Below, piece by piece: positions 1,562-37,532 of a stretch of 64,000 bases of DNA (position 1 is its first letter; every line of letters begins with the position of its first letter). The notes beneath the pieces were generated by a model. That model did no database searches and was not told where the DNA came from. It saw only the letters and a program-made list of their open reading frames with translations. The DNA is from Candidatus Falkowbacteria bacterium (GTDB lineage Bacteria; Patescibacteriota; Patescibacteriia; XYB2-FULL-38-15), in assembly GCA_016214745.1 (NCBI GenBank), contig JACRNW010000012.1:4368-68367 (forward strand), in the 5' to 3' direction. The translations under genes were made by a program, and so were the position numbers.

Positions 1562-4108
1562 ATGTTTGACTTCCCAGAAGTTCGTCCAATTGGTAAACAA
1601 AAACAAAATGACCCTTCGGGTCATCACCCGCATGGTGACAAAAATAGTTTAAGACCTCTGATTTTAATTTTGGGGTTTTTTGCCATTGCTTCCGCCGGCG
1701 TAATTTTATTTGCCCTATTTCAAAAATTGGGGCCGGAAGCTTCTGCCGCTCCGGGTATTTATAAAACTTTAAATTACCAGGGAAAATTGGAAGACGTTGG
1801 CGGCGTCACCGTGGCCGACGGGTCATATAATATTAAACTTACAATTTATGATGCCGCCGCGGCCGGCAACGTTCTTTGGACCGCTCGCGAGTCGGATGCT
1901 TGCGGCGCGCCGTTTAATCCGGCGGCAAAATCAGTCACGACTTCGCTTGGTGTTTTTTCAACACAACTTGGAGAATCTGGTGACTGTCCGATCAATTTGG
2001 ATTTTAATACAGATTCTTATTATCTTGGTGTGACAGTTGGCGCGGATTCGGAAATGACGCCGAGAAAAAGAATTGGCGCGGCTGGCTACGCCTTCAACGC
2101 AGATTTGTTAGATGGCCTTAATACTTCCGCGGTCGGCGGCGCTTCGGCTTTTGTTCCGGCAGCTGATTCCAGCGGAAATTTTGTTTTAACTGGCAACGTT
2201 ACTTTTGACACAAATACTTTTGCTCTTGATTCTACAAATGATAATATTGGGATCGGCACGGCGGCGCCTGATATTGCTCGTACTTTGGATTTAATAATCA
2301 GCAAAAAGTACGGAATTTATGCTTCATCAAACTCTACCACAAACCACATGGCGGTGATTTATGGCGAGGCGACAGACACAACTAACATTGATCAGATGGG
2401 CGGATATTTTTCCGCGGCAAGCCCCAGCGGAAAAGGTGTTTTTGGGACAGCGGTTACCGCCGGCAATCCGTTTATTCCAAATTATGGCGGATATTTTATT
2501 GCGGCTGGCGATTCTGGAAATGGTGTCTATGGCGAAGCTACCGCGACAACTGGGGCCACTAACTACGGCGGGTATTTCACGGCGGGGGGCGATACGGGCT
2601 ATGGAGTTTACGGTTGGGCTGCCGGCACGGGTGGAGTAAATTATGGAGGGTATTTTAGAGCAAACGGCCTTGGCGGTTATGGTGTTTATGGCTGGGCCGC
2701 GGATATGGGAGCCACAGGAAATTACGGCGGTTATTTCCAGGCTAGCGGTCAAAGTAGCTACGGCGTCTACGGCTACGCGAGCGAAGCCACGACGGTAAAT
2801 TACGGCGTCTACGGACAAGCCGAAGGCCCGGCTGGCTATGGTGTTAAAGGTTACGCGGGGAATATTGTTGGCGGAAATTACGGCGGGTATTTTGAGGGCG
2901 CCGCCGCAGGAAGTTACGGCGCTTACGGAAAAGCGCCGGGCACCGGCGGCTACGGTGTTTACGGTTGGGCTTCAAACGCGGGCGCGCCAAACTACGGCGG
3001 TTATTTTAAATCAGACGGCGCGGGCGGTTACGGCGTTTACGCGTTGGCTACTGATACCACCGCGGTCACAAACTACGGCGGCTATTTTACGGCCGCGGGA
3101 ACTACGGCGCGGGCGGTTTATGCTGAAGCCAGTGACCTTACCTCAATAAATTTTGGCGGTTATTTTATAGCTAGAGGGGTAGATGGGGGCACGAGTGGAG
3201 TTTATGGAGAAGCTACGGCTGCTGGTTCTGTTTACGGTGTTCAAGGATTTGCTTCTAATAGTGGGGCTGTAGCAAATTACGGCGGTAATTTTGCGGCTGA
3301 CGGCACTGGCGGTGCTCGTGGTGTTTTTGGTTTCGCCTCTAACGTCGCAGGCACCAATTACGGAGTTTATGGGCAAGTAGCCTCCTCGGCTGGCTGGGGC
3401 GGATATTTTACCGGCGGCAATGGGCTTTACGCTAGCAGATTTAGCATTGCTGATACAACGAGCGCCATATCTTACAACACTATCGGCGCGCCCGCGGCAA
3501 CACATACCGCAGCCGGAGAAATTGAAAACGCCTCGGATCTTTTTATTGCCGATGACTTGGAAATCGGCGGTCAGGGTTGGTCCACCGGAGGCTATACGGA
3601 CTTGGCTGAAATGATTGCTTACAGCGGAGAGGGTGAAGCTGGCGATGTGGTCGTAGTTGATGAAAACAACGATAACGCCGCGAAACTCGCGACAAAACCT
3701 TATGATCAAAGTGTTCTCGGAATAATTTCCACTAAACCGAGTTTAATAATTACCGGCGGTATTAAGGAAGGGAAATTGATGGCTGTGGCCGGCCGCGTGC
3801 CGACCAAGGTGACGAACGTAAACGGCGCGATTAAGCGCGGCGACTTACTGACAACTTCTGCGGCGCCTGGCCGCGCCATGAAGGCAACCGAGCCAGGACC
3901 GATTGTAGGTAAGGCTCTTGGAGAGTGCGACGAGAGTGAATGCACAATTTGGGTTTTTCTAAATGTTAGTTGGTATGGCGGTGTAAGAACTGAAACAACG
4001 GCAATAGTTTCTTCGGTAATTGAAGATGCCAAAAATTTGGAGAGAGAAAATCTTTTGACAAAATTATCAGAGCTATGGCAAAAAATTGTTTCGTTGTTGA
4101 AAAAATAA
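1562..4108 (+). CDS. Large membrane-anchored surface protein. It has about 12 tandem Gly/Tyr-rich repeats (NYGGYF.A.G..GYGVYG) and a C-terminal domain paralogous to the upstream ORF.
   Basis: The N-terminal hydrophobic segment reads ILILGFFAIASAGVILFALF. A roughly 66-nt periodic coding repeat spans 2400..3400. The shared motif is AGRVPTKVTNVNGAIKRGDLLTTSAAPGRAMKATEPG. Confidence 0.6.
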   Translation: MFDFPEVRPIGKQKQNDPSGHHPHGDKNSLRPLILILGFFAIASAGVILFALFQKLGPEASAAPGIYKTLNYQGKLEDVGGVTVADGSYNIKLTIYDAAAAGNVLWTARESDACGAPFNPAAKSVTTSLGVFSTQLGESGDCPINLDFNTDSYYLGVTVGADSEMTPRKRIGAAGYAFNADLLDGLNTSAVGGASAFVPAADSSGNFVLTGNVTFDTNTFALDSTNDNIGIGTAAPDIARTLDLIISKKYGIYASSNSTTNHMAVIYGEATDTTNIDQMGGYFSAASPSGKGVFGTAVTAGNPFIPNYGGYFIAAGDSGNGVYGEATATTGATNYGGYFTAGGDTGYGVYGWAAGTGGVNYGGYFRANGLGGYGVYGWAADMGATGNYGGYFQASGQSSYGVYGYASEATTVNYGVYGQAEGPAGYGVKGYAGNIVGGNYGGYFEGAAAGSYGAYGKAPGTGGYGVYGWASNAGAPNYGGYFKSDGAGGYGVYALATDTTAVTNYGGYFTAAGTTARAVYAEASDLTSINFGGYFIARGVDGGTSGVYGEATAAGSVYGVQGFASNSGAVANYGGNFAADGTGGARGVFGFASNVAGTNYGVYGQVASSAGWGGYFTGGNGLYASRFSIADTTSAISYNTIGAPAATHTAAGEIENASDLFIADDLEIGGQGWSTGGYTDLAEMIAYSGEGEAGDVVVVDENNDNAAKLATKPYDQSVLGIISTKPSLIITGGIKEGKLMAVAGRVPTKVTNVNGAIKRGDLLTTSAAPGRAMKATEPGPIVGKALGECDESECTIWVFLNVSWYGGVRTETTAIVSSVIEDAKNLERENLLTKLSELWQKIVSLLKK

Positions 4109-4248
4109 TTTTTAAATTGTAAGCGAGTTGTGCCTTCGGGTACGGGTCATAACTCGTGTATAATAGCAGCTCCCCACCGCAAGGTGAGGAGTTGTTGTAT
4201 TTGTAGAAAAAGAAGTTTGAAGTTGGAAGTTAGAAGTTGGTGTTAGTT

Positions 4249-4330
4249 TCCCCCTCTACCCTTGGGGGAGAGGGTTGGCCCGCCTGCCACGCTAGCGCTG
4301 GCGTTGCGGGCAGGGGTGAGGGGTATGCGG
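4249..4330. repeat. GC-rich hairpin repeat, copy R-a. It is the reverse complement of the copy inside the RT gene at 39826..39912.
   Basis: The sequence cccctctacccttgggggagagggttggcccgcctgccacgctagcgctggcgttgcgggcaggggtgagggg is the reverse complement of 39838..39905 with few mismatches. Confidence 0.8.
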
Positions 4331-4332
4331 GG

Positions 4333-4361
4333 TTGACAAAAAGGTAAAAATGTGGTATTAT
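4333..4361 (+). promoter_or_regulatory. Sigma70-like promoter (TTGACA, 17 nt, TATTAT). It belongs to a promoter-leader module that recurs at 37463 and 49596.
   Basis: The sequence is ggTTGACAaaaaggtaaaaatgtggTATTATaaat. It is nearly identical to 49594..49630 and 37462..37498. Confidence 0.55.
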
Positions 4362-4478
4362 AAATGGTAAAATTAAAGGATGGAGTTTAGGCGAAAAAGC
4401 TCTTAAATTAAAGCTTTTTCGGGTAAGCTTCAACTTTTGAAGAGCCGTCTCGGCAGCGCCGAGACAAGGAGGTTGGCA

Positions 4479-5096
4479 ATGAAGGGTTTGATGACGTGCG
4501 CGGCGCTCGGATTCGTGTTCGTGGCTGGCTGCTACGGGAGCTACCAGAACTACGGCGATGGCCGAGGGGAAGACAGCTTCCCGATCGTGACCTGCGAAGT
4601 CACGGTGACGACGAACGCAGACGGCGCGACCATCACGGTCGACGGCGTCGTGGCAGGCGGTACCGTGGAACTCACGGTGGGCTCCCACACTTTCGTGGCC
4701 ACGGCTGCCGGTTACATTCCGGCGAGCGCGGTCGTGGACGTGGACGAGACCTGTGCGCCTGTCGCGCTTCGGCTTCGGCCGAACCTGAACGGCGACTACG
4801 ATCTCGTCTTGCACAACAGCATCTACGACCGGCTCCTGCTGCACCTCGACCAGGACGAGGAAGGGAATCTCGTCGGCTACGACTGGTACGCCGATGACCC
4901 GGGACACAGCTTCCAGGAATTCACCGGCACTGTTTCGTTCGATGGGGAGGCTTATCTCCTTTCGGACGATTCGGTCCGGCTGAATCTCACTGGCCGCTGG
5001 ACTCCGCCGGGAATTGGCGGCATCTCTCGGATCGTTGGTACCTGGATTTCCGCCGCAGGAGGCGACGGAGAGTGGCTCGCCGAGTCGCGGCCGTAG
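4479..5096 (+). CDS. High-GC lipoprotein with a PEGA-like domain.
   Basis: A strong SD (aaggagg) sits 7 nt before the ATG. The lipobox is FVFVAGC. The PEGA-like stretch reads TVTTNADGATITVDGVVAGGTVELTVGSHTFVATAAGY. The ORF is about 63% GC against about 40% in the flanks. Confidence 0.6.
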   Translation: MKGLMTCAALGFVFVAGCYGSYQNYGDGRGEDSFPIVTCEVTVTTNADGATITVDGVVAGGTVELTVGSHTFVATAAGYIPASAVVDVDETCAPVALRLRPNLNGDYDLVLHNSIYDRLLLHLDQDEEGNLVGYDWYADDPGHSFQEFTGTVSFDGEAYLLSDDSVRLNLTGRWTPPGIGGISRIVGTWISAAGGDGEWLAESRP

Positions 5097-5285
5097 CATC
5101 GGCCGCGCTCGAACCGGCATCTGGCAGAAATCGTGAAGAACGATTCTGTCGGGTGCCGGCTTTTTTAATTTTCATTCCGCTGTGGATGAAAATTTTTTTA
5201 TAATCATTTTTTGTGCTATAATTAATTAATTAATTTAACGCTTGTCCTTAAAAGTGCGTCTTTTGAGGAAAGTAAAATTCAATTT

Positions 5286-17419: not shown

Positions 17420-17545
17420 ACCCCGTTAGAAGTCTGCTTTTGAGCAGATTAAGTAATCAAAGGTAAAATGGATGTATTTTTATCATTACCCCGTTTCGCT
17501 GTAAGCGAAAAATTTTTACGGAAAATTTTTCGCCAAGGATTTCTA
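17418..17545 (-). promoter_or_regulatory. Copy 2 of the structured leader element. Its 3' arm directly abuts the ftsK start codon.
   Basis: The minus strand reads CCCCGTTAGAAATCCTTGGCG-[cgaaaaatt..aatttttcg hairpin]-...GACTTCTAACGGGGT-ATG. Confidence 0.6.
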
Positions 17546-17721
17546 ACGGGGCATACCCCCTTAAATAATTGATAATTTGTTCTTAAATTATAGTATTATT
17601 GGGTAGAAAAGTAAATCCCCACACCAACAATTGTTGGTGTGGGGATAAACCCCTTCTGTCAATACCGAAACATTGGTGTCTATCTCTTGACAAGAGCATG
17701 ATTATTTCTTAAAATAACAAA

Positions 17722-17901
17722 AATCCCGCACTTTTTTTTAAAGTACGGGACAGACAAGATAGTAAGGAAAGAACTGGAGGCAGTGAGCTCGGCTTGGTCC
17801 CGTCATTCGACAGGACGCCGGACACGGGATTGGTTAAAGTGCCACCGCTAAAAGCGGGGTGCCGCCAAGGCGGCAAAAAATTGAGTGTGCACCCGATTTT
17901 T
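17722..17901 (+). ncRNA. Candidate small RNA of about 180 nt, identity unknown (size is compatible with 6S RNA but unverified).
   Basis: The upstream promoter is TTGACA(17687)-17nt-TAAAAT. A 5' hairpin (cccgcacttt/aaagtacggg) is present. The terminal stem cggggtgc...gcacccg is followed by a T-run at 17895..17901. No ORF is present. Both flanking genes are on the minus strand. Confidence 0.35.
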
Positions 17902-18072
17902 ACTATTCCAATCCTTCCCGACCCCCATTTCTTTCCTTGCTATTTTCTTTTAAATTAGCGCTTTTTAAACACTAACAAGTAATCATACCATAAAATTAGA
18001 ATTTTGTCAATAGTCATTGACAAAAACCGCCGAAAGGGCGGTTTTTAGTTTATCTTAGATTTAATTTTTCTG

Positions 18073-20406: not shown

Positions 20407-20509
20407 CTACAAATTACAAATTTTGATACAAATATACAAATTCTTGCTTACACGTTGATCTAATAAAAATATACTTTATCGCTATTTGTAAATGATTTGT
20501 AATTTGTAG
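20407..20509. mobile_element. AT-rich MITE-like element, copy A (TIR CTACAAATTACAAAT...ATTTGTAATTTGTAG).
   Basis: It is about 90% identical to the reverse complement of 41325..41432, including the internal caaatatacaaattcttgct..acgcgtt.atctaa. Confidence 0.65.
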
Positions 20510-22174
20510 TTATTCTATCAATTTATAAATTTTCCCCTCATCGTCTTTATATACCATAAGAAAGTTCCCGTCACTTTTTAAATTATTTTCCAGGGCGATA
20601 TGGTCTTTATCAACAAAAACATATTCTGAATGGAAATCATTTTTAACAATCTCGGAAATGTTTTGCCGCCTGCCGGTTGTGATATCAACCCATTCTTTAT
20701 GCAGGTCTTTATTATAATCATACATAAAAGTCGGATCAAGGCCGGCGATGTAATAATTGTGGGTGTTGTAATAAAAAAGCGCCGGAAAATCATCCCAGTC
20801 ATTATGAAAAATAATTGCTCCGGCCGGAGTATTATTTTTTAACCATTCCGCCGCGCCGCGATATTTATAGATGGAGCCGCCGGAAAGATAGAGTTGTTTT
20901 ATGGACCAAACGTTCCGCCCGGCAGTAAGCGGAATCATAATTAAAATATAAAGAATAACGAGGCTGGAAAAAATTTTTCTTTTTTGTCGCCAATTATTAA
21001 ATGCGGTCCAATATTTTTTAATTAAAGACAGCGGCTGATTTAAGGTAAAGGCGGATGAAAGAGTCGCAAAAGGAATGAAGTATTCAACATTGCGGCGGGA
21101 GCGCAAAGTCAGCGCCAAGAAAAAAAGCGCGAGAAAAGTTGAGGTGAGAATTTTTGTCTTTGTCTTGCGGTCGGTTAGAGCGGGTTTTTCTTTGCCAGCG
21201 AAATTTTTAAGAAAATTTATAAAAAATACAGTGAAAGAGAGTATCAATAAAATAAAAATAAAAGAAGAATTGGCGATGAGATCGCCCAAACCGTAAGGAT
21301 ACCACTCGGCTCCCACGCCGATTTTATCTTGATAATTAATAACGGCGATTTTTATAATTTGTTGCCAGTAAAAAAATAAATTTTTTGGAAAAAACGGATT
21401 TAGAACAACGCCGGCAACAAGGCCGCCAAAACACGCCGTAAGCAGTTTGATATTTTGTTTAGTGAAGACACAACGGAAAAAGTATGAAGTATAAAGTATG
21501 AAGTATAAAGTATATTTTTTTATTTTTTGAGCCAGGTTTTTGATACTTAATACTTGATACCCAATACGATCATCTATCTGTTTTTGATGAGAAAAATTTA
21601 TAATCGCGTCGCTTAAAACATAGAATGTGGTTAGAATAAACATCAGCGGCCAGCCGCCGTAAGTCCAAACATAAATAAAAGATAAAAGAAAAAGCGGCCA
21701 GATTTTTCGATTAAAAATAAAATAAAGGCCAAAGAGTAGGATTATCAGTGAAATAGATGAGGCCTTAGCCAGATTAATTCTAAAAATAAAAGGACTTGAA
21801 ACAAGAAGAATTAGACAATAAAAAATTGCGCCCCTAATTTTAAATTTTTGGAGAAACCAATAAAAAGTTAAAATCAAAAGCGCAGCGGAAAACGCGGTAA
21901 AAAGTTTTATACCGACCAGCGGGTCAAAAAAAGTAACAAAAGGAATGAGGGCGACGTGATATAAAAAATGGTGGTCGGTATAATAATTTTTCAAAACAGT
22001 AAATTGCAGCCAGGGAAAATCCCGGACAATCCCTTGGTCGCTGGTTAAGACCGCCATCTTGGCGTGGTAGAAAGAATCCGGATCGGGAAAAGTCGGGGAA
22101 ATTTGAAAATACGAAAAAAGAGAAAACGAAACGATGAAAAGCAGAAGAAATTTTAAGAGTTCAGTTTTTTTCAT
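20510..22174 (-). CDS. Polytopic membrane protein, putative GT-C-type glycosyltransferase.
   Basis: It has many TM helices and an N-terminal loop with FPDPDSFYHAK. A 13-nt tandem repeat (aagtatgaagtat)x3 lies inside the coding region at about 21470. Confidence 0.4.
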   Translation of the reverse strand: MKKTELLKFLLLFIVSFSLFSYFQISPTFPDPDSFYHAKMAVLTSDQGIVRDFPWLQFTVLKNYYTDHHFLYHVALIPFVTFFDPLVGIKLFTAFSAALLILTFYWFLQKFKIRGAIFYCLILLVSSPFIFRINLAKASSISLIILLFGLYFIFNRKIWPLFLLSFIYVWTYGGWPLMFILTTFYVLSDAIINFSHQKQIDDRIGYQVLSIKNLAQKIKKYTLYFILYTSYFFRCVFTKQNIKLLTACFGGLVAGVVLNPFFPKNLFFYWQQIIKIAVINYQDKIGVGAEWYPYGLGDLIANSSFIFILLILSFTVFFINFLKNFAGKEKPALTDRKTKTKILTSTFLALFFLALTLRSRRNVEYFIPFATLSSAFTLNQPLSLIKKYWTAFNNWRQKRKIFSSLVILYILIMIPLTAGRNVWSIKQLYLSGGSIYKYRGAAEWLKNNTPAGAIIFHNDWDDFPALFYYNTHNYYIAGLDPTFMYDYNKDLHKEWVDITTGRRQNISEIVKNDFHSEYVFVDKDHIALENNLKSDGNFLMVYKDDEGKIYKLIE

Positions 22175-23327: not shown

Positions 23328-24629
23328 TCATTTATTAAATAATTTTTTACGGCGGAGGAGCTTGTGATAGCCAATGGCAAAACGGTGGGCTTCATCGCGA
23401 ACTCGGAGCAAAATATCTTTGTGCAATTCAGCGACGCGGACGAGTTCAGGATTATTTTGATCGGCAATCAGCCGGTCTTGTTTGCGGTCAAAACCTTTGG
23501 CAACACCCAGCACCGGAATTTTTATTTTTTTCTCGGAGAGAATCTCGCGAACAGCGTTGATTTGCCCCCAGCCGCCGTCAACCAAAATTATATTTGGTAA
23601 TGGCCAATCAGAAAGATGCTTTAATCGTCGCGTCATTACTTCTTTCATCATCCCGACATCGTTTGGTGTGGTTAAAGTTTTAATTTTAAATTTTCGGTAT
23701 TCATTTTTATTTGGTTTACCATCTTCAAAAACAACCATGCTGCCGGTCGCCGAAGTGCCGCTGATGTTTGAAATGTCATAACCCTCAATTCGACCAAAAA
23801 TGTCAATTGTTCCGCTGGATACGAATAGCGAATCTTTTGCGAATTTGCGAATTCGTAAATTCGAAGTTAATTCGTTATTCGTATCCTTTGTCAAAATAGC
23901 CACATCCTGGATATGCTCCAGAGAAAAAATTTGATTGCGAAGTCGCGCTGCTTTTTCAAAATTTTCTTCGCGGCTCGCAATAGCCATTTCCTTTTTTAAA
24001 TTTTTAATGATTTTTTCTTTTTTTCCTTCAAAAAATAAAATTAAATGGTGGATGAGGCGGCGGTAATCTTTTATTGAAACAAATCCGGCGCAAGGTGCAG
24101 GGCATTGTTTTAAATGATAATGAAGGCACGGTTTTTTAGCCATAACCACGCAATCGCGGAAAGGAAAAATTTTCCGGCGCAGAATATCAAGCGCGGCGCG
24201 AAGCGAGGAGGCACTCGTGTACGGACCGAAAAGTTTGGCGATTTGTTTTTTCTCGCCGGATGTCATCCGAGCCAATTCTAATCCACGCAGTAAAAAAATC
24301 CGAGGAAATTTTTCTTTGCTGATCGCCACGTACAAAAACGATCTATCATCTTTTTCTTTAACATTATATTTTGGTAAATATTTTTTTATCAAATTGGCTT
24401 CCAAAATTAAAGCTTCAATCACGGTAGGAGTTTTTTGGTAATCAATATCTGCAATTTTTGAAACTAATTTTTCAATTCTAATATCGTGCGGTCGGTCAAA
24501 ATAGCTTTTTACCCGATCGCGGAGCGAAGTGGCTTTTCCGACATAAATAATTTTACCCACGGCATTTTTCATTAAATACATGCCCGGGGTTTTAGGAAAT
24601 TTTTTTATTTTATTTTTTAATTCCGGCAT
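23328..24629 (-). CDS. uvrC: Excinuclease ABC subunit C, short form. The start is reassigned to the internal Met.
   Basis: A GIY-YIG motif (GMYLMKNAVGKIIYVGKATSLRDRVKSYF), a UvrBC-interaction region, and a C-terminal RNase H-like endonuclease region are present. The longer ORF start at 24779 would read through the high-GC insert. Confidence 0.85.
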   Translation of the reverse strand: MPELKNKIKKFPKTPGMYLMKNAVGKIIYVGKATSLRDRVKSYFDRPHDIRIEKLVSKIADIDYQKTPTVIEALILEANLIKKYLPKYNVKEKDDRSFLYVAISKEKFPRIFLLRGLELARMTSGEKKQIAKLFGPYTSASSLRAALDILRRKIFPFRDCVVMAKKPCLHYHLKQCPAPCAGFVSIKDYRRLIHHLILFFEGKKEKIIKNLKKEMAIASREENFEKAARLRNQIFSLEHIQDVAILTKDTNNELTSNLRIRKFAKDSLFVSSGTIDIFGRIEGYDISNISGTSATGSMVVFEDGKPNKNEYRKFKIKTLTTPNDVGMMKEVMTRRLKHLSDWPLPNIILVDGGWGQINAVREILSEKKIKIPVLGVAKGFDRKQDRLIADQNNPELVRVAELHKDILLRVRDEAHRFAIGYHKLLRRKKLFNK

Positions 24630-24681
24630 ATTGACTTTTTTATTTTTTTGTTTCAAGATAAATTTGCGAAAGGAGGACGCA

Positions 24682-24972
24682 ATGAAGATAGGCCACCTCA
24701 GGGAGCGCGTAGAACGTGACGCGAAACGGGACTTACCCGAGAGATTAATCTTCGGCGTCTGGGATGCAACAGTCGGCAATTACGTCGAAAGAGCCGAGTG
24801 GATTGTTGTCGTGGCAGAAAATGCCAAGGTGACGGTTGATCGGCTGAAGGGAGTGATTGATTATTTCTCGTCAATGCAATGTAGCGGCGTATCGAGCGAC
24901 GTGCAGCAGATCATGACACGTTTCGGTATGGCGCTCTCGAGGCAGTGGAAGGTCTACCGGACCGCGAAGTGA
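24682..24972 (+). CDS. High-GC small hypothetical protein (97 aa) inserted between uvrC and uvrA.
   Basis: A strong SD (aaaggagg) precedes the ATG. A TTGACT promoter lies upstream. The ORF is about 58% GC in a 40% GC context. Confidence 0.45.
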   Translation: MKIGHLRERVERDAKRDLPERLIFGVWDATVGNYVERAEWIVVVAENAKVTVDRLKGVIDYFSSMQCSGVSSDVQQIMTRFGMALSRQWKVYRTAK

Positions 24973-25006
24973 GCCTTGGCAAAACTTGCCCGGGCTCTTT
25001 TTTTAT

Positions 25007-27598: not shown

Positions 27599-27639
27599 AT
27601 TGACATTTTTTAATAATTTTGTAATAATTCATTTTGTAC

Positions 27640-27900
27640 GGTTTTGGTTTGCCGTGTTGGCGGACCACCGTCCGAGGAAAGAAGGAGGTGGATAGAGGAA
27701 AATGAGCAACAAGTCTTCGCTCGTGCGCGAGGCCAAGGCGCAGACGGCGTGATGCGGTGATCCCGCTAGGAGGTGGATGTCGGGGCGCCCCTGACACGGG
27801 ACGGAGATCGTCGGTTTAGCGGCTTAAGTGCCGCCACAGAAATGTGAACCGGCGGAAGCTCCAGTAGCCCTCAGGAGAATCATTCCTTCATTGGATCCCC
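27640..27900. other. GC-rich noncoding insert between uvrA and uvrB with duplicated AGGAGGTGGAT motifs. It supplies the last roughly 10 codons of uvrB.
   Basis: The composition shifts to above 60% GC. The motifs gaaggaggtggatagagg and gctaggaggtggatgtcgggg are present. Only micro-ORFs are found. Confidence 0.4.
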
Positions 27901-30018
27901 GGGATGTGCTTCGGCATGTTTCGGGGATTTTTTTAATTCCCGAATTTCATCGCGCAAAATGGCGGCCAGCTCGAATTGTAAATTTTTCGCCGCCTCTTTC
28001 ATTTGCCTTTCTTTTTCGTTTATAATTTCTTCAATATTTTTTCCTTTTTCGCCGATAACATCCAGATCCAAAATATTTTTAACTTTTTCTTTTTTATCTT
28101 CTTCGCCGACAATATCTTTGATTTTCTTTTGAATAGTTTTTGGTGTGATGCCGTGTTTTTTGTTATAGTCCATTTGCGTTTTTCGCCGACGTTCGGTTTC
28201 GCGGATGGCGCGTTCCATTGAGCCAGTCATTTGATCGGCATAAAGTAAAACTTGCCCGTGGACATTTCTCGCCGCTCGGCCAATCGTCTGGATAAGCGAA
28301 GTTTCACTGCGCAAAAATCCTTCTTTGTCCGCGTCTAAAATGGCGACTAGGGTCACTTCCGGCAGATCCAATCCTTCGCGCAATAAATTAACGCCGACCA
28401 GAATATCAAATTTCCCCCGGCGAAATTCAGTCAGAATTTTTATCCGGTCCAATGTTTGAACCTCACTGTGGATGTAGTTAACTTTAAATTTTTTTTCCGC
28501 GAGATATTCGCTTAAATCCTCGGCCATTTTTTTAGTCAGAGTCGTGACAAGGACCCGTTCGTTTCGTTTTACGCGGTCGGCAATTCGTTCCATTAAATCA
28601 TCAACTTGAGATTTTTCACCGGAATTTTTTGGTGTGATCGGGCGAACAATAATTTCCGGATCAATCAAACCAGTCGGTCTGATAATTTGTTCAACAACTT
28701 GTCCGCTTCGAGTTAATTCATAATCCGCCGGCGTGGCCGAAGTATAAATTGTCTGCGGCATTCGCGTTTCAAATTCGCTGAATTTCAGCGGCCGATTATC
28801 GGCGGCGGAAGGCAGACGAAAACCAAAATCAATCAACGCTCTTTTTCGCGAAGCATCACCGTCATACATTCCGGAAATTTGCGGCACGGTGACATGTGAT
28901 TCATCAATTACCATTAGCCAATCGGATAGGTTGTGGTTATTTTTGCCGGGGGATACGAATTGCGAATCTTTTACGAATTTACGAATTTGCAAATTCGCAG
29001 TTAATTCGTTATTCGTATCCTTTTGTGATGAGCGCGGGAAATAATCTAAAAGTGTCTCCGGCGGTTCGCCCGCGGCGCGGCCAGAAAGATGGCGAGAATA
29101 ATTTTCAATCCCATGGCAGTAGCCGACTTCTTTTATCATTTCTAAATCATAATTGGTCCGGCGCTCCAATCGCTCGGCTTCAAGCAGTTTTCCATTTTTA
29201 TTAAAATAATCCAAGCGGTCTTTTAATTCTTCTTTGATTGTTTTGAACGCTCGCTCGCGTTCCGGGCCCAGCGTGACAAAATGTTTGGCCGGAAAAATCC
29301 AAACGTCGGATGGTTCATCTTTTATTTTTCTTGTTACTGGGTCAATCGCAAAAATATTTTTTATTTTCTGGTTGGCGGACTCTACTCGGTAAATAATTTC
29401 TTGGTTCACGGGCATTATTTCCAAAGTCTCCCCACGCAAACGAAATTCGCCGCGTTTTAAATCGGAGTTAGTCCGGTTAAATTGCATGGTGATTAACTGG
29501 TTCAATAAATCAGCGCGGGTGATAGTTTGATCTTTAGCCAAATGCAAAACAATTTTTTCATAGGTTTCCGGGGCGCCCAAACCATAAATACAAGAAACCG
29601 AAGCGACGATGATTACATCGCGCCGCGTCAAAAGCGCCTGAGTCGCGGCGTGGCGGAGGCGATCAATTTCGTCATTGATCATGGCTTCTTTTTCAATGTA
29701 AGTATCGGTTCGCGGCAAATATGCTTCAGGTTGGTAGTAATCGTAATAGGAAACAAAATATTCCACGGCATTATCCGGGAAAAATTCTCGAAACTCATTG
29801 CAAAGCTGCGCCGCCAGGGTTTTATTGTGGGCGATGACAAGAGTGGGTTTATTGATTTTTGCGATCACATTTGCCACAGTAAAAGTTTTGCCTGAACCGG
29901 TGACGCCGAGAAGCGTTTGATGACCGTAATTTTTTTTCAAACCACTAACAAGTTCGGCGATTGCTTTTGGCTGATCGCCCGATGGTTTAAATTTAGATTT
30001 TAATTTGAATTTGTTCAT
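27880..30018 (-). CDS. uvrB: Excinuclease ABC subunit B. The start is reassigned to MNKFKLKSKF.
   Basis: The sequence reads GDQPKAIAELVSGLKKNYGHQTLLGVTGSGKTF, with helicase motifs, a DESH box, and a C-terminal UVR domain (ELAAILRDEIRELK). Confidence 0.95.
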   Translation of the reverse strand: MNKFKLKSKFKPSGDQPKAIAELVSGLKKNYGHQTLLGVTGSGKTFTVANVIAKINKPTLVIAHNKTLAAQLCNEFREFFPDNAVEYFVSYYDYYQPEAYLPRTDTYIEKEAMINDEIDRLRHAATQALLTRRDVIIVASVSCIYGLGAPETYEKIVLHLAKDQTITRADLLNQLITMQFNRTNSDLKRGEFRLRGETLEIMPVNQEIIYRVESANQKIKNIFAIDPVTRKIKDEPSDVWIFPAKHFVTLGPERERAFKTIKEELKDRLDYFNKNGKLLEAERLERRTNYDLEMIKEVGYCHGIENYSRHLSGRAAGEPPETLLDYFPRSSQKDTNNELTANLQIRKFVKDSQFVSPGKNNHNLSDWLMVIDESHVTVPQISGMYDGDASRKRALIDFGFRLPSAADNRPLKFSEFETRMPQTIYTSATPADYELTRSGQVVEQIIRPTGLIDPEIIVRPITPKNSGEKSQVDDLMERIADRVKRNERVLVTTLTKKMAEDLSEYLAEKKFKVNYIHSEVQTLDRIKILTEFRRGKFDILVGVNLLREGLDLPEVTLVAILDADKEGFLRSETSLIQTIGRAARNVHGQVLLYADQMTGSMERAIRETERRRKTQMDYNKKHGITPKTIQKKIKDIVGEEDKKEKVKNILDLDVIGEKGKNIEEIINEKERQMKEAAKNLQFELAAILRDEIRELKKSPKHAEAHPGDPMKE

Positions 30019-30214
30019 ATACGCAAAAAATTCCCCGAGATTCCTCCTCACTAAGGGAGGAGTGGGGCGTGTCTGTAAAGAAACGAACAGATTTTCGTTC
30101 TTATTGTAAGAGTATAGTAGCAAGAGAATTCGGCTTTGTCAAGCGCAACTTGACAAATGAGGGTTTTTTGATTTAAGATAGACAATCGCGAACAATAAGG
30201 GAGGGAAGGGAGGA

Positions 30215-31021
30215 TTGATCGTGAGCGAAGGAAACGCAGGGAGCAGTGTTGGGGGTTGTTCGGACGACAACCAGGTGGGCGACGACACGCTGACTGGCAA
30301 CAAAACTGGTCGGTACGAACTGCCGCTGGACGATCCGGATTTTCTTGGCGAGCTGTTTAGGACGGCAGAGGAAGAGGGCTTGGCCAAGACCTTCCAGGCT
30401 GGCGAGTGGATCTTCCATGCCGGCGAAGAGCCGGAGGAGTACTGGCTCATCGGCAAGGGTCGGGTAGCCCAGTACCGTGGAGGCAGCGATACGGGCAGTT
30501 GCATCAATGAGCTTGGCCCGCGGAGATTCCTCGGGGTGAGAGCGTTCCACCTCGGGATGCCGCATACTACCTCGGCTCAGGCCATTGAACCCAGCACTCT
30601 GATCAGGATCGGGGGATCCCTCTACGGCAAGTTGCTCAAAGTTCCGCGGTTCGTCTACCTCGTTATCCAGCAGCAGGAGAAGGAAATCTGCGAGGTGAGC
30701 GACGCGGTTCTGCGGAGTCGCGTTGACCTTGAAGCGCTGCAGCGCGAGGTCGCCACTCTCCGGAGGGATATTGAGCGATATGAAAAGATGTCGCCAGAGC
30801 AGCTGGCTCAGAGGAACGTTAGGGCCGGGGTGGCGGAACGGACTCTGCATCTTCTGGCGCCGGATCTTGTGGGGCTCGACAAGGACGTGGCAGAGCTTCT
30901 TGCCACGCTTCCGCCAGAAGTTCTGAAGGCGGTACGCAACAATCTCGTTTTTGGCAGGATTTTCGCCGCCATTACGAGATGTCGGAACCAGGTTCGGCCG
31001 CTCGAGTTTACCCGCAAGTAG
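30215..31021 (+). CDS. High-GC cyclic-nucleotide-binding domain protein with a C-terminal coiled coil.
   Basis: The cNMP-binding fold signature is FQAGEWIFHAGEEPEEYWLIGKGRVAQYR...GPRRFLGVRAF. An SD (aagggagga) is present. The ORF is about 62% GC. Confidence 0.55.
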   Translation: MIVSEGNAGSSVGGCSDDNQVGDDTLTGNKTGRYELPLDDPDFLGELFRTAEEEGLAKTFQAGEWIFHAGEEPEEYWLIGKGRVAQYRGGSDTGSCINELGPRRFLGVRAFHLGMPHTTSAQAIEPSTLIRIGGSLYGKLLKVPRFVYLVIQQQEKEICEVSDAVLRSRVDLEALQREVATLRRDIERYEKMSPEQLAQRNVRAGVAERTLHLLAPDLVGLDKDVAELLATLPPEVLKAVRNNLVFGRIFAAITRCRNQVRPLEFTRK

Positions 31022-31028
31022 GGGGTTT

Positions 31029-31066
31029 GCCGGTTGCGCGCAAGTGCGACCGGCTTTTTTTATTTT
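31029..31066 (+). terminator. Intrinsic terminator.
   Basis: The hairpin gccggttgcgcgcaagtgcgaccggc is followed by ttttttt. Confidence 0.7.
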
Positions 31067-31075
31067 GTGGGAAGT

Positions 31076-31145
31076 AAACCCCGCCCCGATTTTGCCCCTC
31101 ACCCAACCCTCTCCCCGATGGGGAGAGGACTAAGGTGAAGGGGGT
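31076..31145. repeat. GC-rich hairpin repeat, copy R-f.
   Basis: The sequence is cccctcacccaaccctctccccgatggggagaggactaaggtgaaggggg. It shares the CCCCTCAC and CTCTCCCC-GNNG-GGGAGAG modules with the copies at 37533, 50699, 4249 and 39826. Confidence 0.7.
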
Positions 31146-31149
31146 GTAT

Positions 31150-31899
31150 TTAAAAAAATTCTGCCGCGGCTTGTGGCTTTGGCAGAATAGTGAAGACGAA
31201 CTCGTGGGTTCTACGGTTAGGGCGGAGTGCATCCCGCGACAGGACATTTGGTCGCGGTCCACTCCCCGAGATCTTCGCCGGTGGAATCGCGAATGACTCG
31301 GCCAACCACATTTTCGTGATCGGCGAATTCGCCGAGGTAGTGCCAGTCGCCAGACCAGAAATCAATTTCTCGGCCGTTGATTTCCGGTTCAAAAGAAGCG
31401 GCTTCAAGTTCTCGCCCACGATACTTCGCACCGTGTGCGGCGGGCTGCAGATTTCCGGCAGGCATTCAACGCAACCCGCCTCAATCACTTCGCAGTTGTT
31501 CGTCACGCAGGCCATGACCGTGGCTTTGGGTTCCGTGTCGCCGCCGCGATCAAGAATGTCGGCGGTGGTTTGGATCAGAGCCGTGGCTTCCCGTCGCGTT
31601 TCAGCCGACGCGCCGTTCGGCGCGAGAGTCAAAAGCGTCGGATTGTCGGAAATTTGCCAGTCCACATCCTTGATCATGATACCGTACGAGTTGTAGACGT
31701 AGGCGTGAAGCTTGTAGTCACTGACGCTGGTCGTGTCGCCGGCGGGGACGACCGAGATGCCGTCTTCCGGCGGAGCGCAGTCGGAGACGATCGCTACTGC
31801 CATGGCGACGCTTGAATCGTTGGGACAGGGGTCAATGAACTCATTCCGGCAGCCGAGCGCCATTGCGAAAAGAACCGCGAACAACATCTTCGTCTTCAT
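31150..31899 (-). CDS. High-GC lipoprotein, hypothetical.
   Basis: The lipobox is FAMALGC and the SD is aaggaggg. It is Cys-rich and about 60% GC. Confidence 0.5.
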   Translation of the reverse strand: MKTKMLFAVLFAMALGCRNEFIDPCPNDSSVAMAVAIVSDCAPPEDGISVVPAGDTTSVSDYKLHAYVYNSYGIMIKDVDWQISDNPTLLTLAPNGASAETRREATALIQTTADILDRGGDTEPKATVMACVTNNCEVIEAGCVECLPEICSPPHTVRSIVGENLKPLLLNRKSTAEKLISGLATGTTSANSPITKMWLAESFAIPPAKISGSGPRPNVLSRDALRPNRRTHEFVFTILPKPQAAAEFF

Positions 31900-32041
31900 T
31901 TGTACCCTCCTTGCTGATTTTATTTTAGCAAAATATAAATAAAATTAAAAATATTTTTTTAAATAATCTTTCCCATGAACCGGAATTAACAAAAATTTCT
32001 CCCTTGACAATTCCCCCAGATTTGTTTAAATAGAATATTCT

Positions 32042-32299
32042 TTGTTTTATCCTTGGAGGAAGATGAGGAGGGAGGGAAAGGTGGAAAAAACAAAGCTAAA
32101 GAGGGGAGACACGTTGGAGTTCACGCTTGAGGGTAAGACCCTGAAGTGCGAAGTTTTGACCAAGATGTGCGTTGGTGACGCCGACCTCGTCGCGTTTTCC
32201 GTCGTCGGCCAGCCGGGCAGGAAATTCTACATCTACCTGCAACAGTTGCCGAACGGCAACCTGATCCAGAAGCCGGGGACCAAAATCTTCGGACATTAG
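32042..32299 (+). CDS. High-GC small hypothetical protein (the start may be the internal ATG/GTG after the ggaggagggaggg SD).
   Basis: A TTGACA promoter is at about 32005. A second 38-aa ORF (32321..32437) with its own SD (gggaggag) follows. A terminator hairpin (aaaaagaggccgactggcctcttt) is at about 32452. Confidence 0.4.
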   Translation: MFYPWRKMRREGKVEKTKLKRGDTLEFTLEGKTLKCEVLTKMCVGDADLVAFSVVGQPGRKFYIYLQQLPNGNLIQKPGTKIFGH

Positions 32300-32735
32300 C
32301 GGGGCGGCGGGAGGAGCGGATGGCCGCGATGAAAGTTCAAACCGGAGACAGGGTTGGACTTGGTCTTGGAAACCGGGATCATCGGGTTGGGGAGGTAGCC
32401 CATTTCTCGCACGAGAGGCCGAGGATCGTTTTCTGACGGTCCTCTTTTTTTGTATAAAAAAAGAGGCCGACTGGCCTCTTTCCCTAAAATTATTGGCAGC
32501 AGCAGGAACAACCCCTTAATCTTTTGGTGTGTTTGCGTAATTCTTTTCCCTTTTTAGTGTTTTTCAGAGCCTGTTTAGTTCTGGCTTTGGCCGCGCTATT
32601 TTGTCCCATATTATTTTTCTAATTAATTATGTAGGTGGCTTTACTTTAATATAATTATCCAAAGTAGTCAAATGTATTGATTTTTTAACGAAAATTTTGT
32701 ATAATTAAATACGCATTAATTAATAAATTTAAACT

Positions 32736-33520: not shown

Positions 33521-33557
33521 AACGTCCCGGGAAATCTGGGACGTTTTTGTTTTGTAA
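33521..33557 (+). terminator. Intrinsic terminator.
   Basis: The hairpin aacgtcccgggaaatctgggacgtt is followed by tttgtttt. Confidence 0.75.
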
Positions 33558-37520: not shown

Positions 37521-37532
37521 TTAAAGGTAAAA

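Follow-up and report, generated by a model that had tools for sequence, protein, structure and literature searches.

Replacement-type flexible genomic islands, such as O-antigen and surface-protein loci, are exchanged via conserved flanks and are usually AT-richer than the genome that carries them. The small GC-rich units described here, which lie in a 64,000-nucleotide stretch of Patescibacteria (CPR) DNA (the window), resemble such islands in their fixed chromosomal position, their divergent or non-homologous content, the homologous recombination in their flanks and their predicted surface-exposed products. They differ in being single-gene units of 0.3–1 kb at about 2 per 10 kb, in being complete from promoter to terminator with portable 5′ and 3′ modules, in being GC-richer than the genome, and in carrying a different translation-initiation signal from the native genes. 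Like integron cassettes, they are small, modular, single-ORF units with imperfect-hairpin ends and variable presence, including a tandem array of three in one relative (L069); unlike them, they come without IntI, attI or attC core in the window, have their own promoters, are scattered and position-conserved, and contain intragenic breakpoints. One of them, islet 6, qualifies as a genuine DGR target, complete with VR/TR, avd and RT, and it shares a homologous expression module with islet 7; both belong to a fast-evolving, probably ligand-binding gene class. The set as a whole departs from DGR targets in that one islet only has a TR and in that the compositional shift is not adenine-specific and reaches well beyond the VR. 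The lgr genes of Protochlamydia amoebophila are reported to be a lineage-restricted, paralogous and relocating family of 5–6 kb LRR genes, markedly GC-richer than their AT-rich, host-associated genome and recently duplicated in that single genome (PMC2216083). The window islets share with them the lineage restriction, the absence of homologues elsewhere and the GC excess, and differ in comprising many unrelated small families with positions conserved across species and a common expression module.

The window has a mean GC of 0.441. Segmentation in sliding 150-bp windows with a threshold of at least 0.55 recovered the GC islets where the initial annotation had placed them:

4165–5201, GC 0.57, segment 1
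24666–24998, GC 0.55, islet 2
27624–27935, GC 0.56, islet 3
30175–31919, GC 0.58, islet 4, first part
32065–32456, GC 0.55, islet 4, second part
33554–33882, GC 0.56, islet 5
37531–38501, GC 0.61, islet 6
38643–38919, GC 0.55, DGR TR
49671–50592, GC 0.57, islet 7
53061–53878, GC 0.60, islet 8

These amount to about 10 small GC-rich units, and the local GC of 58–65% that had been ascribed to all of them was too high for the small islets, which measure 54–56%. Two further GC-rich patches (2442–3962 and 47160–47559) lie inside genes of native codon usage and are not islets. The gap between islet and native genes persisted in codon usage, where GC3 is bimodal with zero overlap, at 0.61–0.95 in nine islet ORFs vs 0.26–0.51 in 38 native genes (about 0.75 vs about 0.42 for the two classes). 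A and T are depleted equally at the 4-fold sites of the islet ORFs. The gene content initially read from the islets (a PEGA lipoprotein, a cNMP-binding protein, a second lipoprotein, a Zn-ribbon protein and unknowns of 78–222 aa) was found, and so was the placement of several islets between uvrC, uvrA and uvrB, with the proviso that Pfam confirmed uvrC and uvrB, the two genes that its scan covered, and that uvrA was assigned from 44–90% identity to full-length matches across phyla together with what we take to be a canonical UvrA N-terminus. In GC-rich regions the longest ORF was often the wrong, antisense frame. A search of the open-access literature returned no description of GC islets in Patescibacteria.

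The first islet, I1, served as the focal cassette, and its parts are as follows:

4249–4326, no strand assigned, GC-rich nested-hairpin MITE-like repeat upstream of I1 and outside the cassette proper
4333–5165, forward strand, focal cassette I1, comprising promoter, leader, ORF and terminator
4333–4361, forward strand, type A promoter, TTGACA-17-TATTAT with an extended −10 TG
4368–4478, forward strand, type A structured 5′ leader, a long hairpin and a GC hairpin that abuts the SD
4465–4471, forward strand, SD AAGGAGG, directly after the GC hairpin of the leader
4479–5096, forward strand, ORF for a 205-aa lipoprotein, GC3 0.79
5097–5165, forward strand, 3′ module, a long imperfect hairpin terminator, CTCGAACCGGCATCTGGCAGAAATCGTGAAGAACGATTCTGTCGGGTGCCGG plus a T-run

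The promoter is kept in seven relatives (L068, L069, L071, L073, L080, L081 and L083), the 3′ module is kept at the DNA level in all orthologous loci, and an RNAalifold consensus of six leaders contains 30 pairs, seven of them with compensatory changes. The type A leader module is reused upstream of a different ORF in L069. In the encoded protein, Pfam recognized a PEGA domain (PF08308, 6.8e-5, 23.1 bits vs a cutoff of 20.8), and a lipobox read by eye places the cysteine at position 18, with no variation at G17-C18, behind a hydrophobic N-terminus, across 21 sequences. The AF2 model (pLDDT 84.8) consists of the PEGA β-sandwich followed by a C-terminal barrel of eight strands at residues 105–203, where the pLDDT is above 90. 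Foldseek matched this barrel to streptavidin, lipocalin-type and designed barrels with a probability of 1.00 and a TM score of 0.58–0.65 (normalised to streptavidin or designed barrels), but with E ≥ 1e-3 and an identity of 10–16%, and the model suggests a calycin/avidin-like domain that is a candidate ligand-binding barrel. The I1 protein would comprise a flexible tether, a PEGA β-sandwich and a predicted ligand-binding barrel at the cell surface; we infer both this location and the expression level of the cassettes.

In eight other relatives, representing at least six distinct lineages, I1 has an orthologue at the same place, preceded by the same promoter and leader and followed by the same terminator; GC3 of these orthologues is 0.72–0.81 vs 0.40–0.51 in the adjacent TPR gene. 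The protein identity falls to 51% with GC3 unchanged, and the 4-fold sites of native orthologues are 41–52% identical in most species pairs, although in some pairs synonymous sites are not fully saturated and residual non-equilibrium is possible. Relatives of I1 number 21 among 5.8 billion proteins and members of the I7 family 13, and all named ones, like all examined contexts of both families, belong to this Patescibacteria clade. In NCBI, JGI, ENA and Logan alike, I1 was recovered solely from this one chromosomal slot, on a background of 0.46–0.49 GC, and no genome turned up whose GC around these islet genes equals their own. The density of islets is 2.1 per 10 kb in the clade vs 0.2–0.6 elsewhere, a difference biased upward by loci L067–L074 and L079–L083, which were retrieved via an islet gene, and less so for the uvrA- and hppA-anchored loci.

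The remaining islets, apart from the DGR block, comprise the following features:

24630–25006, forward strand, islet 2 cassette, with promoter region, AAGGAGG SD and terminator, between uvrC and uvrA
24682–24972, forward strand, islet 2 ORF, 96 aa, GC3 0.66
27600–27935, forward strand, islet 3, with a TTGACA-17-AATAAT promoter, a structured RNA of about 300 nt and a strong terminator, between uvrA and uvrB
27703–27753, forward strand, islet 3 mini-ORF, 16 aa
30150–31061, forward strand, islet 4a cassette, with promoter, SD and a terminator at 31029–31054
30221–31021, forward strand, islet 4a ORF, a 266-aa cNMP-binding protein, GC3 0.70
31086–31145, no strand assigned, hairpin MITE-like repeat between the convergent islets 4a and 4b
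31150–31899, reverse strand, islet 4b, a 249-aa lipoprotein with an AAGGAGG SD, GC3 0.70
32004–32490, forward strand, islet 4c, with a TTGACA −35 box, SD and terminator
32063–32299, forward strand, islet 4c ORF, 78 aa, GC3 0.77
32321–32437, forward strand, possible second ORF of islet 4c, 38 aa
33632–33868, reverse strand, islet 5, a 78-aa ORF with an AAGGAG SD, GC3 0.61
49597–50585, forward strand, islet 7 cassette, with a type B promoter at 49597–49625, a conserved leader of about 180 nt and a conserved 3′ end with terminator
49811–50479, forward strand, islet 7 ORF, 222 aa, GC3 0.72
50700–50750, no strand assigned, hairpin MITE-like repeat downstream of islet 7, conserved in L075
53124–53850, forward strand, islet 8, start at 53124 or 53157, stop at 53756, GC3 0.73, with terminator

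Conservation extends to several of these. The islet 2 slot holds a GC-rich ORF of 87–96 aa behind the same promoter in L001–L005 and L060, and is a mere 117–217-bp spacer in the Falkowbacteria L006 and L007. Islet 3, which had been listed as protein-coding at 27640–27900, proved to be a conserved structured RNA with a mini-ORF of 16–21 aa and no sizeable ORF; its consensus fold has seven covarying pairs, and it is kept at the DNA level in L001, L004 and L005 and absent from L002 and L003, where uvrB and uvrA abut. Syntenic GC-rich homologues of islet 4a, and syntenic homologues of islet 4b with 37–52% identity and a GC of 0.52–0.59, are present in L001, L002, L004 and L005. L076 and L078 have nothing in the islet 7 slot, which is occupied in the window, L075 and L077. 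Islet 8, a Cys-rich double zinc ribbon (Pfam Zn_ribbon_6, 5e-7), is matched at the same place by homologues in L076 (54%) and L077 (46%), and other GC-rich families occupy the slot in L075, L077 and L078. Same-position, same-GC conservation of the islet 7 and 8 slots stands in part, the slots elsewhere holding other GC-rich families or nothing; the genes in them have GC3 of 0.63–0.84 in genomes of 0.40–0.48 GC. Islet 4c has no homologue among the fetched relatives and islet 5 none in the relatives examined, and in L001 and L004 the islet 5 slot contains a different GC-rich family of about 90 aa. The slot after the SPFH gene likewise holds different GC-rich families, or is empty, in relatives.

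These data bear directly on the proposal, made in the initial annotation, that the islets were acquired recently from a high-GC donor (an actinobacterial host, for example) and have not yet ameliorated. Their codon-position GC (GC1/2/3 of 0.61/0.44/0.74) is what would be expected of a genome of roughly 58–60% GC, their strong SDs are out of keeping with the way native genes initiate translation, and islets 4c and 5 and the whole DGR block, though only these, are absent from the same sites in the relatives examined. Against such import, most islets keep their synteny and an equally high GC in species that have diverged heavily at the 4-fold sites of native genes: I1 has the same slot and GC in its eight relatives, and islets 2, 3, 4a and 4b are also conserved and GC-rich in the uvrA loci of relatives. 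Conserved position and unchanged GC in related CPR genomes is the very pattern that the initial annotation had named as speaking against its proposal. Neither the I1 nor the I7 family has a homologue beyond the clade among the 5.8 billion proteins searched, the taxonomic comparison yielded no high-GC donor, and the promoters and leaders are of native type and conserved. Import is contradicted for I1, I2, I3, I4a, I4b, I7 and I8, and we regard it as very improbable as a general account.

The DGR block provides an internal comparison, and its features are:

37470–38486, forward strand, islet 6, the DGR target unit, with a type B promoter at 37470–37498
37533–37615 and 37647–37827, MITE-like repeats that interrupt the islet 6 leader
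37930–38391, forward strand, DGR target ORF, GC3 0.95, with the VR at about 38265–38385
38455–38486, forward strand, islet 6 terminator
38740–40362, forward strand, rest of the DGR, comprising TR, avd and RT
about 38740–38860, DGR TR
38901–39209, reverse strand, avd, GC3 0.41, matching phrog_3206 (2.7e-16)
39220–40362, DGR RT, GC3 0.47, matching RVT_1 (4e-24)

One islet had been identified as a DGR target gene, and the RT, the Avd and an adenine-biased TR/VR pair are all present; the part of islet 6 at 37533–37827 is made up of MITE-like repeats. TR and VR differ at 38 positions, 22 of them TR adenines (22 of 29 adenines are changed). Because the other 16 differences are not at adenines and the RT carries an in-frame hairpin-MITE insertion at 39838–39902, seen against the RTs of L012 and L013, the current activity of the DGR is uncertain. 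The block is absent in L076 and L077. GC3 of the target is 0.95–0.96 even outside the VR vs 0.41 in avd and 0.47 in the RT, and similar contrasts occur in other CPR (0.77 vs 0.41 in L013, 0.53 vs 0.34 in L012). Within one block the target is thus GC-rich and avd and RT are not, which argues that GC does not mark origin, adding to the case against import, and that high GC is a maintained property of the gene class. Adenine-specific mutagenesis by the DGR was rejected as the cause of the high GC, given the equal depletion of A and T at 4-fold sites and the GC3 of 0.96 outside the VR. The promoter-leaders of islets 6 and 7 are homologous (z = 14) despite unrelated ORFs; the two are not paralogous DGR targets, their proteins comparing at E > 1 with homology confined to the promoter-leaders, and the DGR TR has no match to the islet 7 3′ end.

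The islets are also set apart by how their genes appear to be translated. A strong SD, unusual for this genome, had been noted for them, and the measurements bear this out: the SD core is at least 5 nt in all nine islet ORFs (mean 6.0), and native genes reach a mean of 3.8 even with starts picked to suit them best, with AAGGAGG in three of 38. Native genes are almost SD-less and islet genes SD-strong. Promoters do not divide so cleanly. A near-consensus TTGACA-17-TAnnnT promoter lies upstream of about five of ten units (I1, I3, I4a, I6 and I7), and similar promoters also precede native tRNAs, uvrB and a LysM peptidase gene, so the idea that each islet has such a promoter and that it is peculiar to the islets does not hold. 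Hairpin terminators do follow most islets, as had been claimed, and the strongest ones within 24–40.5 kb follow islets. The units sit exactly between the promoters of neighbouring genes. No Rfam match, either at the gathering score or at E ≤ 1, was obtained for the leaders, for islet 3 or for further non-coding units with promoters.

Discrete units of variable presence between fixed flanks recall the integron-like cassettes that the initial annotation had also considered. On such a reading, a site-specific recombinase would capture and shuffle them at hairpin (attC-like) sites formed by the GC-rich repeats or 3′ modules. L069 has three cassettes in a row with common 5′ and 3′ modules, one imperfect hairpin of about 65 bp standing behind three different GC-rich ORFs, and a tyrosine recombinase adjoins islet 6. 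This recombinase (36503–37420), the only one of its kind in the window, scores 127.7 bits vs a TIGR02249 integron-integrase cutoff of 265, has its best matches in XerC/XerD/XerA, and is conserved beside rpsO in relatives without islet 6. The cassettes are spread over 64 kb rather than anchored in an array at attI, each has its own promoter (near-consensus in about half), the 3′ hairpins are terminators with T-runs, and no attC-like core common to them was seen by eye. The breakpoint inside the I1 ORF, described below, indicates homologous rather than site-specific exchange. Nor do the repeats provide boundaries. A GC-rich hairpin repeat family does exist (six copies in the window vs 0.12 expected), but it adjoins only islets 1, 4, 6 and 7 rather than most islets as thought; the copy upstream of I1, whose core fits the family pattern, is present in the window, L071 and L073 but missing from L068 and L069. 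The repeats were rejected as att sites or boundaries of cassettes, since orthologous cassettes lack them and they occur at unrelated sites; they are bystanders, not the cassettes. An integron mechanism consequently seems to us the least probable of the accounts considered. The cassette idea itself survives in the sense of discrete, self-contained units with slots filled or empty, portable modules and mosaic coding parts, although without the integron or import origin.

Mosaicism is evident at I1, whose tree is incongruent with its flanks: between the window and L073, the TPR gene is 95% identical and I1 52%. The breakpoint lies inside the ORF, the leader being closest to L071/L073 and the 3′ half of the ORF closest to L068/L069, with an identity of 0.88–0.92 that exceeds that of the flanks. 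The coding parts of I1 are mosaic and have been exchanged between lineages. With slots 7, 8 and post-SPFH divergent or empty in relatives and I1 incongruent and mosaic, the loci behave as replacement islands would. Allele replacement, incongruent trees and slots with non-homologous GC-rich genes in different species might also reflect a steady inflow of alleles that repeatedly replace slot contents, drawn from some unsampled GC-rich pool (plasmid, phage or sister CPR lineage) that shares the regulatory signals of the clade, and GC-rich CPR relatives do exist (L010 at 0.556 and L042 at 0.578). We consider this improbable: those two relatives have no homologues of these families in the syntenic loci and were rejected as donors, and I1 was never recovered outside its one chromosomal slot and moderate GC background. 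A phage or defence origin was likewise rejected, as IMG/VR contains no relatives of I1 or I7 and no islet protein matched PHROG or PADLOC; nor were there NCBIfam matches. The searches made brought up neither a high-GC donor nor a phage copy nor an integron integrase.

We therefore favour, as the probable account, conserved, clade-specific, recombining cassettes whose GC richness is a maintained trait of their class. I1 would be a vertically inherited, clade-specific, self-contained expression cassette consisting of a strong sigma-70 promoter, a structured leader of about 110 nt, an AAGGAGG SD, a lipoprotein ORF and a long-hairpin terminator. The class to which it would belong, small accessory genes making up about 13% of the sequence in the clade (a sister group of Ca. 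Falkowbacteria), may be described as orphan, clade-confined families in fixed intergenic slots between housekeeping genes, with fast-evolving amino-acid sequences and gain, loss and replacement slot by slot. Lineages would swap coding parts through homologous recombination while the regulatory frame around them stays conserved, with portable 5′ promoter-leader and 3′ terminator modules placed around unrelated ORFs. GC richness and SD-dependent initiation would then be stable traits of the class, whatever the GC of the host genome, and not a fading foreign mark.

Synteny, conserved GC3, clade restriction, mosaicism, shared modules and the SD dichotomy are established by the data. That the composition is actively maintained is what we infer from this pattern; about what maintains it we are far less sure. 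The most likely cause, in our view, is selection linked to a separate mode of expression that would set stable, structured mRNAs with SD initiation beside AU-rich, SD-less native mRNAs; GC-biased gene conversion comes a close second. Such conversion acts at eukaryotic recombination hotspots; here it would operate at recombination-hot slots under diversifying selection, where divergent alleles would repeatedly form heteroduplexes whose GC-biased repair would drive all codon positions to GC. Several observations favour it. Recombination between lineages is demonstrated at the focal locus; the symmetric AT-to-GC shift at 4-fold sites and the shift at all three codon positions suggest a fixation bias, not codon selection alone; the islet 3 non-coding RNA is also GC-rich; and mRNA structure shows no strong excess beyond composition, the synonymous-codon shuffle giving a weak, non-significant excess (z −1.29 ± 0.41 vs −0.62 ± 0.25). 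Yet GC3 is even along the islet ORFs, including parts that look non-recombinant and the non-VR part of the DGR target, without concentration in recombinant segments, and leaders in the same recombining units keep native GC, although they are constrained. We know of no precedent in bacteria for so strong a local effect of biased conversion, and hold it to be a possible but rather unlikely driver. Within-species strain pairs are 99.9–100% identical and yield no usable polarised SNP spectrum.

More broadly, and tentatively, these CPR genomes may run two regimes, AU-rich, SD-less housekeeping genes and fast-evolving, strong-SD, modular genes in a GC dialect that face the host or environment (lipoproteins, DGR-type binders, small regulators and a structured RNA), the dialect being actively maintained over speciation timescales by selection for separate translation and mRNA stability or by unusually strong local GC-biased conversion; the case for this falls somewhat short of even. 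To our knowledge, no bacterial genome has been described whose architecture as a whole reflects either such selection or such conversion. Atypical GC is routinely taken as a sign of recent horizontal transfer, and here that inference fails: a gene class with GC3 of about 0.75 persists at the same loci of many species in a native background of about 0.42. If selection maintains the GC, these organisms, about whose gene regulation next to nothing is known, would possess an additional mode of expression that depends on SDs, GC-rich coding and modular leaders, and it would mark the genes likeliest to mediate the episymbiotic lifestyle, namely small regulators, DGR-type binders and lipoproteins of the surface. 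Were biased gene conversion responsible instead, the islets would be the sharpest local bacterial example of a debated process and a natural test bed for it. In either case, the conserved leaders and the SD dichotomy offer annotation rules for CPR genomes.

The window also contains short repeats of their own interest. The hairpin repeat at 4259–4323 is 98.5% identical to an inverted copy at 39838–39902, and an AT-rich 73-bp palindrome is a second short multi-copy palindrome at non-orthologous sites. No transposase or RAYT was identified for the MITE-like repeats. Rickettsia palindromic elements insert in frame, and the window repeats resemble these, MITEs and REP-like elements in being short multi-copy palindromes at non-orthologous sites, with some copies of the palindromes forming in-frame insertions in the RT, UvrB and UvrC genes.

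The window has a GC content of 44.1%, interrupted by GC-rich stretches with sharp edges where the initial annotation had reported islets; windowed GC and the split in third-position GC (GC3) between islet ORFs and native genes both bear these islets out. The longest ORF of an islet mostly lies in a wrong, antisense frame, and frames were picked instead by positional GC and Shine-Dalgarno (SD) sequence, giving nine ORFs.

ORFs of the GC-rich islets (I1-I8), picked by positional GC and SD
4479-5096, + strand, I1 ORF (focal cassette, PEGA lipoprotein)
24682-24972, + strand, I2 ORF
30221-31021, + strand, I4a ORF (cNMP gene)
31150-31899, - strand, I4b ORF (lipoprotein)
32063-32299, + strand, I4c ORF
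33632-33868, - strand, I5 ORF
37930-38391, + strand, I6 ORF (DGR target)
49811-50479, + strand, I7 ORF
53157-53756, + strand, I8 ORF

No sizeable ORF lies in islet 3 (27600-27935). The GC3 of the islet ORFs (0.61-0.95, n = 9) does not overlap that of native genes (0.26-0.51, n = 38), with pooled GC1/2/3 of 0.61/0.44/0.74 and 0.50/0.37/0.42, respectively. From native to islet genes, both A (0.19 to 0.09) and T (0.28 to 0.16) drop at 4-fold sites, so the composition shift is symmetric. Islet proteins use more C, R, V, D and G and fewer K, I and N than native ones. Pfam confirmed PEGA, cNMP-binding and double zinc ribbon domains among them, and also UvrB, UvrC, XerC/D and RT in the window. GC-rich patches at 2442-3962 and 47160-47559 were rejected as islets, as the genes that contain them show native codon usage.

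By UvrA, the window belongs to Patescibacteria, with five to six species at 87-90% identity (L001-L005, L014/L060) and Candidatus Falkowbacteria at 81-82%. Gene order over ~14.5-33.5 kb is conserved in relatives, which carry GC islets in the same slots (fixed intergenic sites) as the window. The uvrA/uvrC slot holds, in L001-L005 and L060, a very divergent GC-rich ORF of 87-96 aa with the same promoter and AAGGAGG SD; in Falkowbacteria it is a spacer only (117-217 bp). L001, L004 and L005 keep islet 3 as conserved DNA; in L002 and L003 it is missing and uvrB directly adjoins uvrA. The convergent I4a/I4b pair is GC-rich in L001, L002, L004 and L005 and 24-52% identical where detectable, among flanking genes that are mostly 50-95% identical (adjacent SPFH gene, 84-95%; UvrA, 87-90%). 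In the clade of sister species, islets number 2.1 per 10 kb and make up 13.5% of bases, with the density of loci found via I1 itself biased upward; the corresponding densities are 0.6 for Falkowbacteria, 0.5 for other CPR and 0.2 for non-CPR loci. Islets that are GC-rich at the same slots in related genomes, an outcome the initial annotation had itself named as refuting, speak against both of its proposed origins and refute recent import from a high-GC donor. In their syntenic regions, L001-L005 lack a homologue of a PAP2/LssY_C membrane protein gene of native GC (33942-35600, - strand); presence/absence variation in the region is not confined to GC-rich genes.

Among 5.8 billion sequences, 21 are relatives of the 205-aa I1 protein; they are all ~200 aa long, and every named one is from Patescibacteria. 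The I1 gene occupies the same slot in eight other relatives (at least six distinct lineages), in the order large surface protein, I1, zero to two variable GC-rich genes, a 783-aa TPR protein and ychF; in all relatives the GC3 of I1 is 0.72-0.81, versus 0.40-0.51 for the TPR gene. The promoter, ~110-nt leader and 3′ hairpin module are near-identical DNA across relatives, and a hairpin repeat lies upstream in some species only. The leader folds into a long hairpin and a GC hairpin close to the SD, with seven compensatory pairs; an Rfam search with it matched no family. The AF2 model (pLDDT 84.8) comprises a disordered tether (residues 1-33), a PEGA β-sandwich (38-97) and an eight-stranded barrel (105-203), for which the best structural matches are streptavidin, designed barrels and lipocalin-type proteins (TM 0.58-0.65, probability 1.00, E ≥ 1e-3). 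From the model we infer that I1 is probably a surface-tethered ligand-binding lipoprotein.

Slot 7 carries a cassette in the window's genome, L075 and L077 but not in L076 or L078. In the empty slot of L076, the LysM-peptidase and hppA promoters diverge with ~20 bp between their -35 boxes; in the occupied slots, a complete promoter-to-terminator unit sits exactly between the two promoters, without target-site duplication. Slot 8 contains the Zn-ribbon family, another family or both, L075 carries an I7 paralogue in another slot, and the DGR block is missing from L076 and L077. In L069, the I1 kind of promoter-leader (type A) precedes two different ORFs, and one 65-bp terminator follows three. 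The promoter-leaders of I6 and I7 (type B) are homologous once MITE insertions are excised (z = 14 overall, 8.5 for the leader alone), and their proteins are unrelated. The I7 leader of L075 (8770-8885) contains an inserted palindromic element of the GTCATCCTGAGGAGC...GCTCAGAATGAC type, so cassette leaders tolerate MITE insertions; a related copy lies in the uvrA/uvrC spacer of L007 (Falkowbacteria).

By TPR and ychF, the closest relative of the window's genome is L073 (95% aa identity), with which it shares only 52% identity in I1; its I1 protein is 76-77% identical to those of L068 and L069. Segment by segment, the window's leader is nearest L071 and L073 (0.90-0.92), whereas I1 from nt 331 to the ORF end is nearest L068 and L069 (0.88-0.92, above the flanks at 0.76-0.80), which places a breakpoint inside the ORF. 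At least two discrete C-terminal allelic classes are present in the I1 family alignment, and between the window and L075 HppA is 98% identical, I7 only 46%.

Under the list heading ALTERNATIVES, we weighed an integron, phage/defence, a GC-rich reservoir, adenine mutagenesis and an assembly artefact. The integron-like origin first proposed was rejected: the recombinase is XerC/D-type, scoring 127.7 against a cutoff of 265 for integron integrase, and the cassettes are scattered, many with their own promoter. For a phage or defence origin, there were no IMG/VR, PHROG or PADLOC matches. An assembly artefact is excluded, since independent assemblies from NCBI, JGI, ENA and Logan, one of them a complete chromosome, share this architecture. 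The idea of cassettes with a common module fails as first framed and survives in altered form: slots are conserved, regulatory modules are portable and GC-coded ORFs are exchanged by homologous recombination. The open-access literature searched gave no account of such an architecture, which most resembles replacement-type flexible islands and the Protochlamydia lgr genes (PMC2216083).

Each of the nine islet ORFs is preceded by an SD whose core spans 5 nt or more (mean 6.0), against a mean of 3.8 in native genes with the most favourable start chosen for each, in agreement with the initial annotation that strong SDs on islets are unusual for this genome. AAGGAGG precedes only 3 of 38 native genes (20510-22174; 40798-41319, NYN; 56141-56398, DUF3006). 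Native genes of the window are essentially SD-less, with AU-rich upstream regions, which implies that initiation in this lineage would be mostly SD-independent. The claim of a consensus promoter per islet, unusual for the genome, holds in part: near-consensus TTGACA-17-TAnnnT promoters lie upstream of I1, I3, I4a, I6 and I7 and not of the rest, and native units (tRNAs, uvrB, the LysM-M23 peptidase gene and several putative RNA genes) have them too. A 29-nt pattern is common to the promoters at 4333, 37470 and 49597 (three matches versus 0.01 expected), and the terminators closing islets are the strongest in 24-40.5 kb. Three promoter-driven units without plausible ORF or Rfam match are candidate CPR-specific ncRNAs.

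Candidate ncRNA units
~17725-17985, - strand, ~260-nt transcript; promoter 18010(-) kept in L002-L005
~45010-45490, + strand, unit 3′ of a perfect TTGACA-18-TATAAT promoter at 44981; kept in L075-L077, upstream of dksA
~53950-54090, + strand, ~130-nt hairpin RNA from promoter 53917

At 4-fold sites, native orthologues are only 41-52% identical for most species pairs, and identity between I1 proteins falls as low as 51%; even so, the GC4 of I1 is 0.67-0.83 in every lineage. Slot genes have a GC3 of 0.63-0.84 throughout, in genomes of 0.40-0.48 GC. Within the DGR block, GC3 is 0.95 for the target (0.96 outside VR) versus 0.41 for avd and 0.47 for RT, and target and rest contrast likewise in two other CPR lineages (0.77 vs 0.41 in L013; 0.53 vs 0.34 in L012), from which high GC appears to be a property of the gene class and not a relic of foreign origin. 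Adenine mutagenesis is excluded by the symmetric A/T loss and the target's GC3 outside VR. An unsampled GC-rich reservoir, ranked third among causes, is improbable: none was found, each recovered I1 context being the same slot at a background GC of 0.46-0.49, all large contigs among the 13 relatives of I7 being clade genomes already identified, and L010 and L042 lacking islet families in syntenic loci. GC-biased conversion at the recombining islet loci ranks above it, as a possible though rather unlikely cause; GC3 is even along islet ORFs, and leaders stay at native GC. In absolute terms, the folds of islet mRNAs are much more stable (-0.29 to -0.49 vs -0.20 to -0.29 kcal/mol/nt), with a small excess over synonymous-codon shuffles (z -1.29 ± 0.41 vs -0.62 ± 0.25). 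The cause we tentatively favour is selection linked to a separate mode of expression that depends on the SD.

The hairpin family has six copies in the window versus 0.12 expected and 4.2 per 100 kb in the clade; a variant occurs in Falkowbacteria, and it is absent from all other fetched loci. Copies lie at non-orthologous sites and are independent MITE-like elements. A 65-bp GC-rich copy (39838-39902), 98.5% identical to that at 4259-4323 upstream of I1, sits in frame within the DGR RT (ORF 39220-40362) and adds ~25 aa (PLTPARNASASVAGGPTLSPKG...) missing from RT homologues in L012 and L013; given this insertion and 16 non-adenine TR/VR differences, the DGR may be decaying.

Other repeats were found. 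A 73-bp AT-rich palindromic element in uvrC (23817-23889) and uvrB (28951-29023), with copies 92% identical, forms an in-frame ~25-aa insertion (KDTNNELTxNLxIRKFxKDSxFVS) in both proteins, missing from the L002, L004 and L005 orthologues, and resembles Rickettsia palindromic elements. A 181-bp GC-rich composite palindromic element, directly repeated at 36321-36499 and 37647-37827 (93% identical), flanks xer; it explains the non-coding GC-rich patch by the tRNA-His/Arg genes, and its second copy interrupts the DGR target cassette leader. A ~130-bp MITE-like element with terminal inverted repeats CCCCGTTAGAA(A/G)TC...GA(T/C)TTCTAACGGGG has at least two window copies (17421-17548, 49403-49533) and one in the uvrA/uvrC slot of sister species L004, a non-orthologous site. 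A further small family is an AT-rich repeat (CTACAAATTACAAATTTTGATACAAATATACAAATTC...) with two copies, inverted relative to each other, in unrelated intergenic regions (20407-20509, 41325-41433). There are also two pairs of perfect (100%) inverted repeats: the 137-bp pair (56999-57135/58737-58873) brackets a large serine recombinase (56963-58573), and the 123-bp pair (58887-59009/63129-63251) a 1328-aa GNAT-domain protein (58947-62933). The region could be an invertible element, an integrated element or an assembly artefact; both pairs adjoin tRNA-Glu, where relatives have tsaD/tsaE after HSP20.
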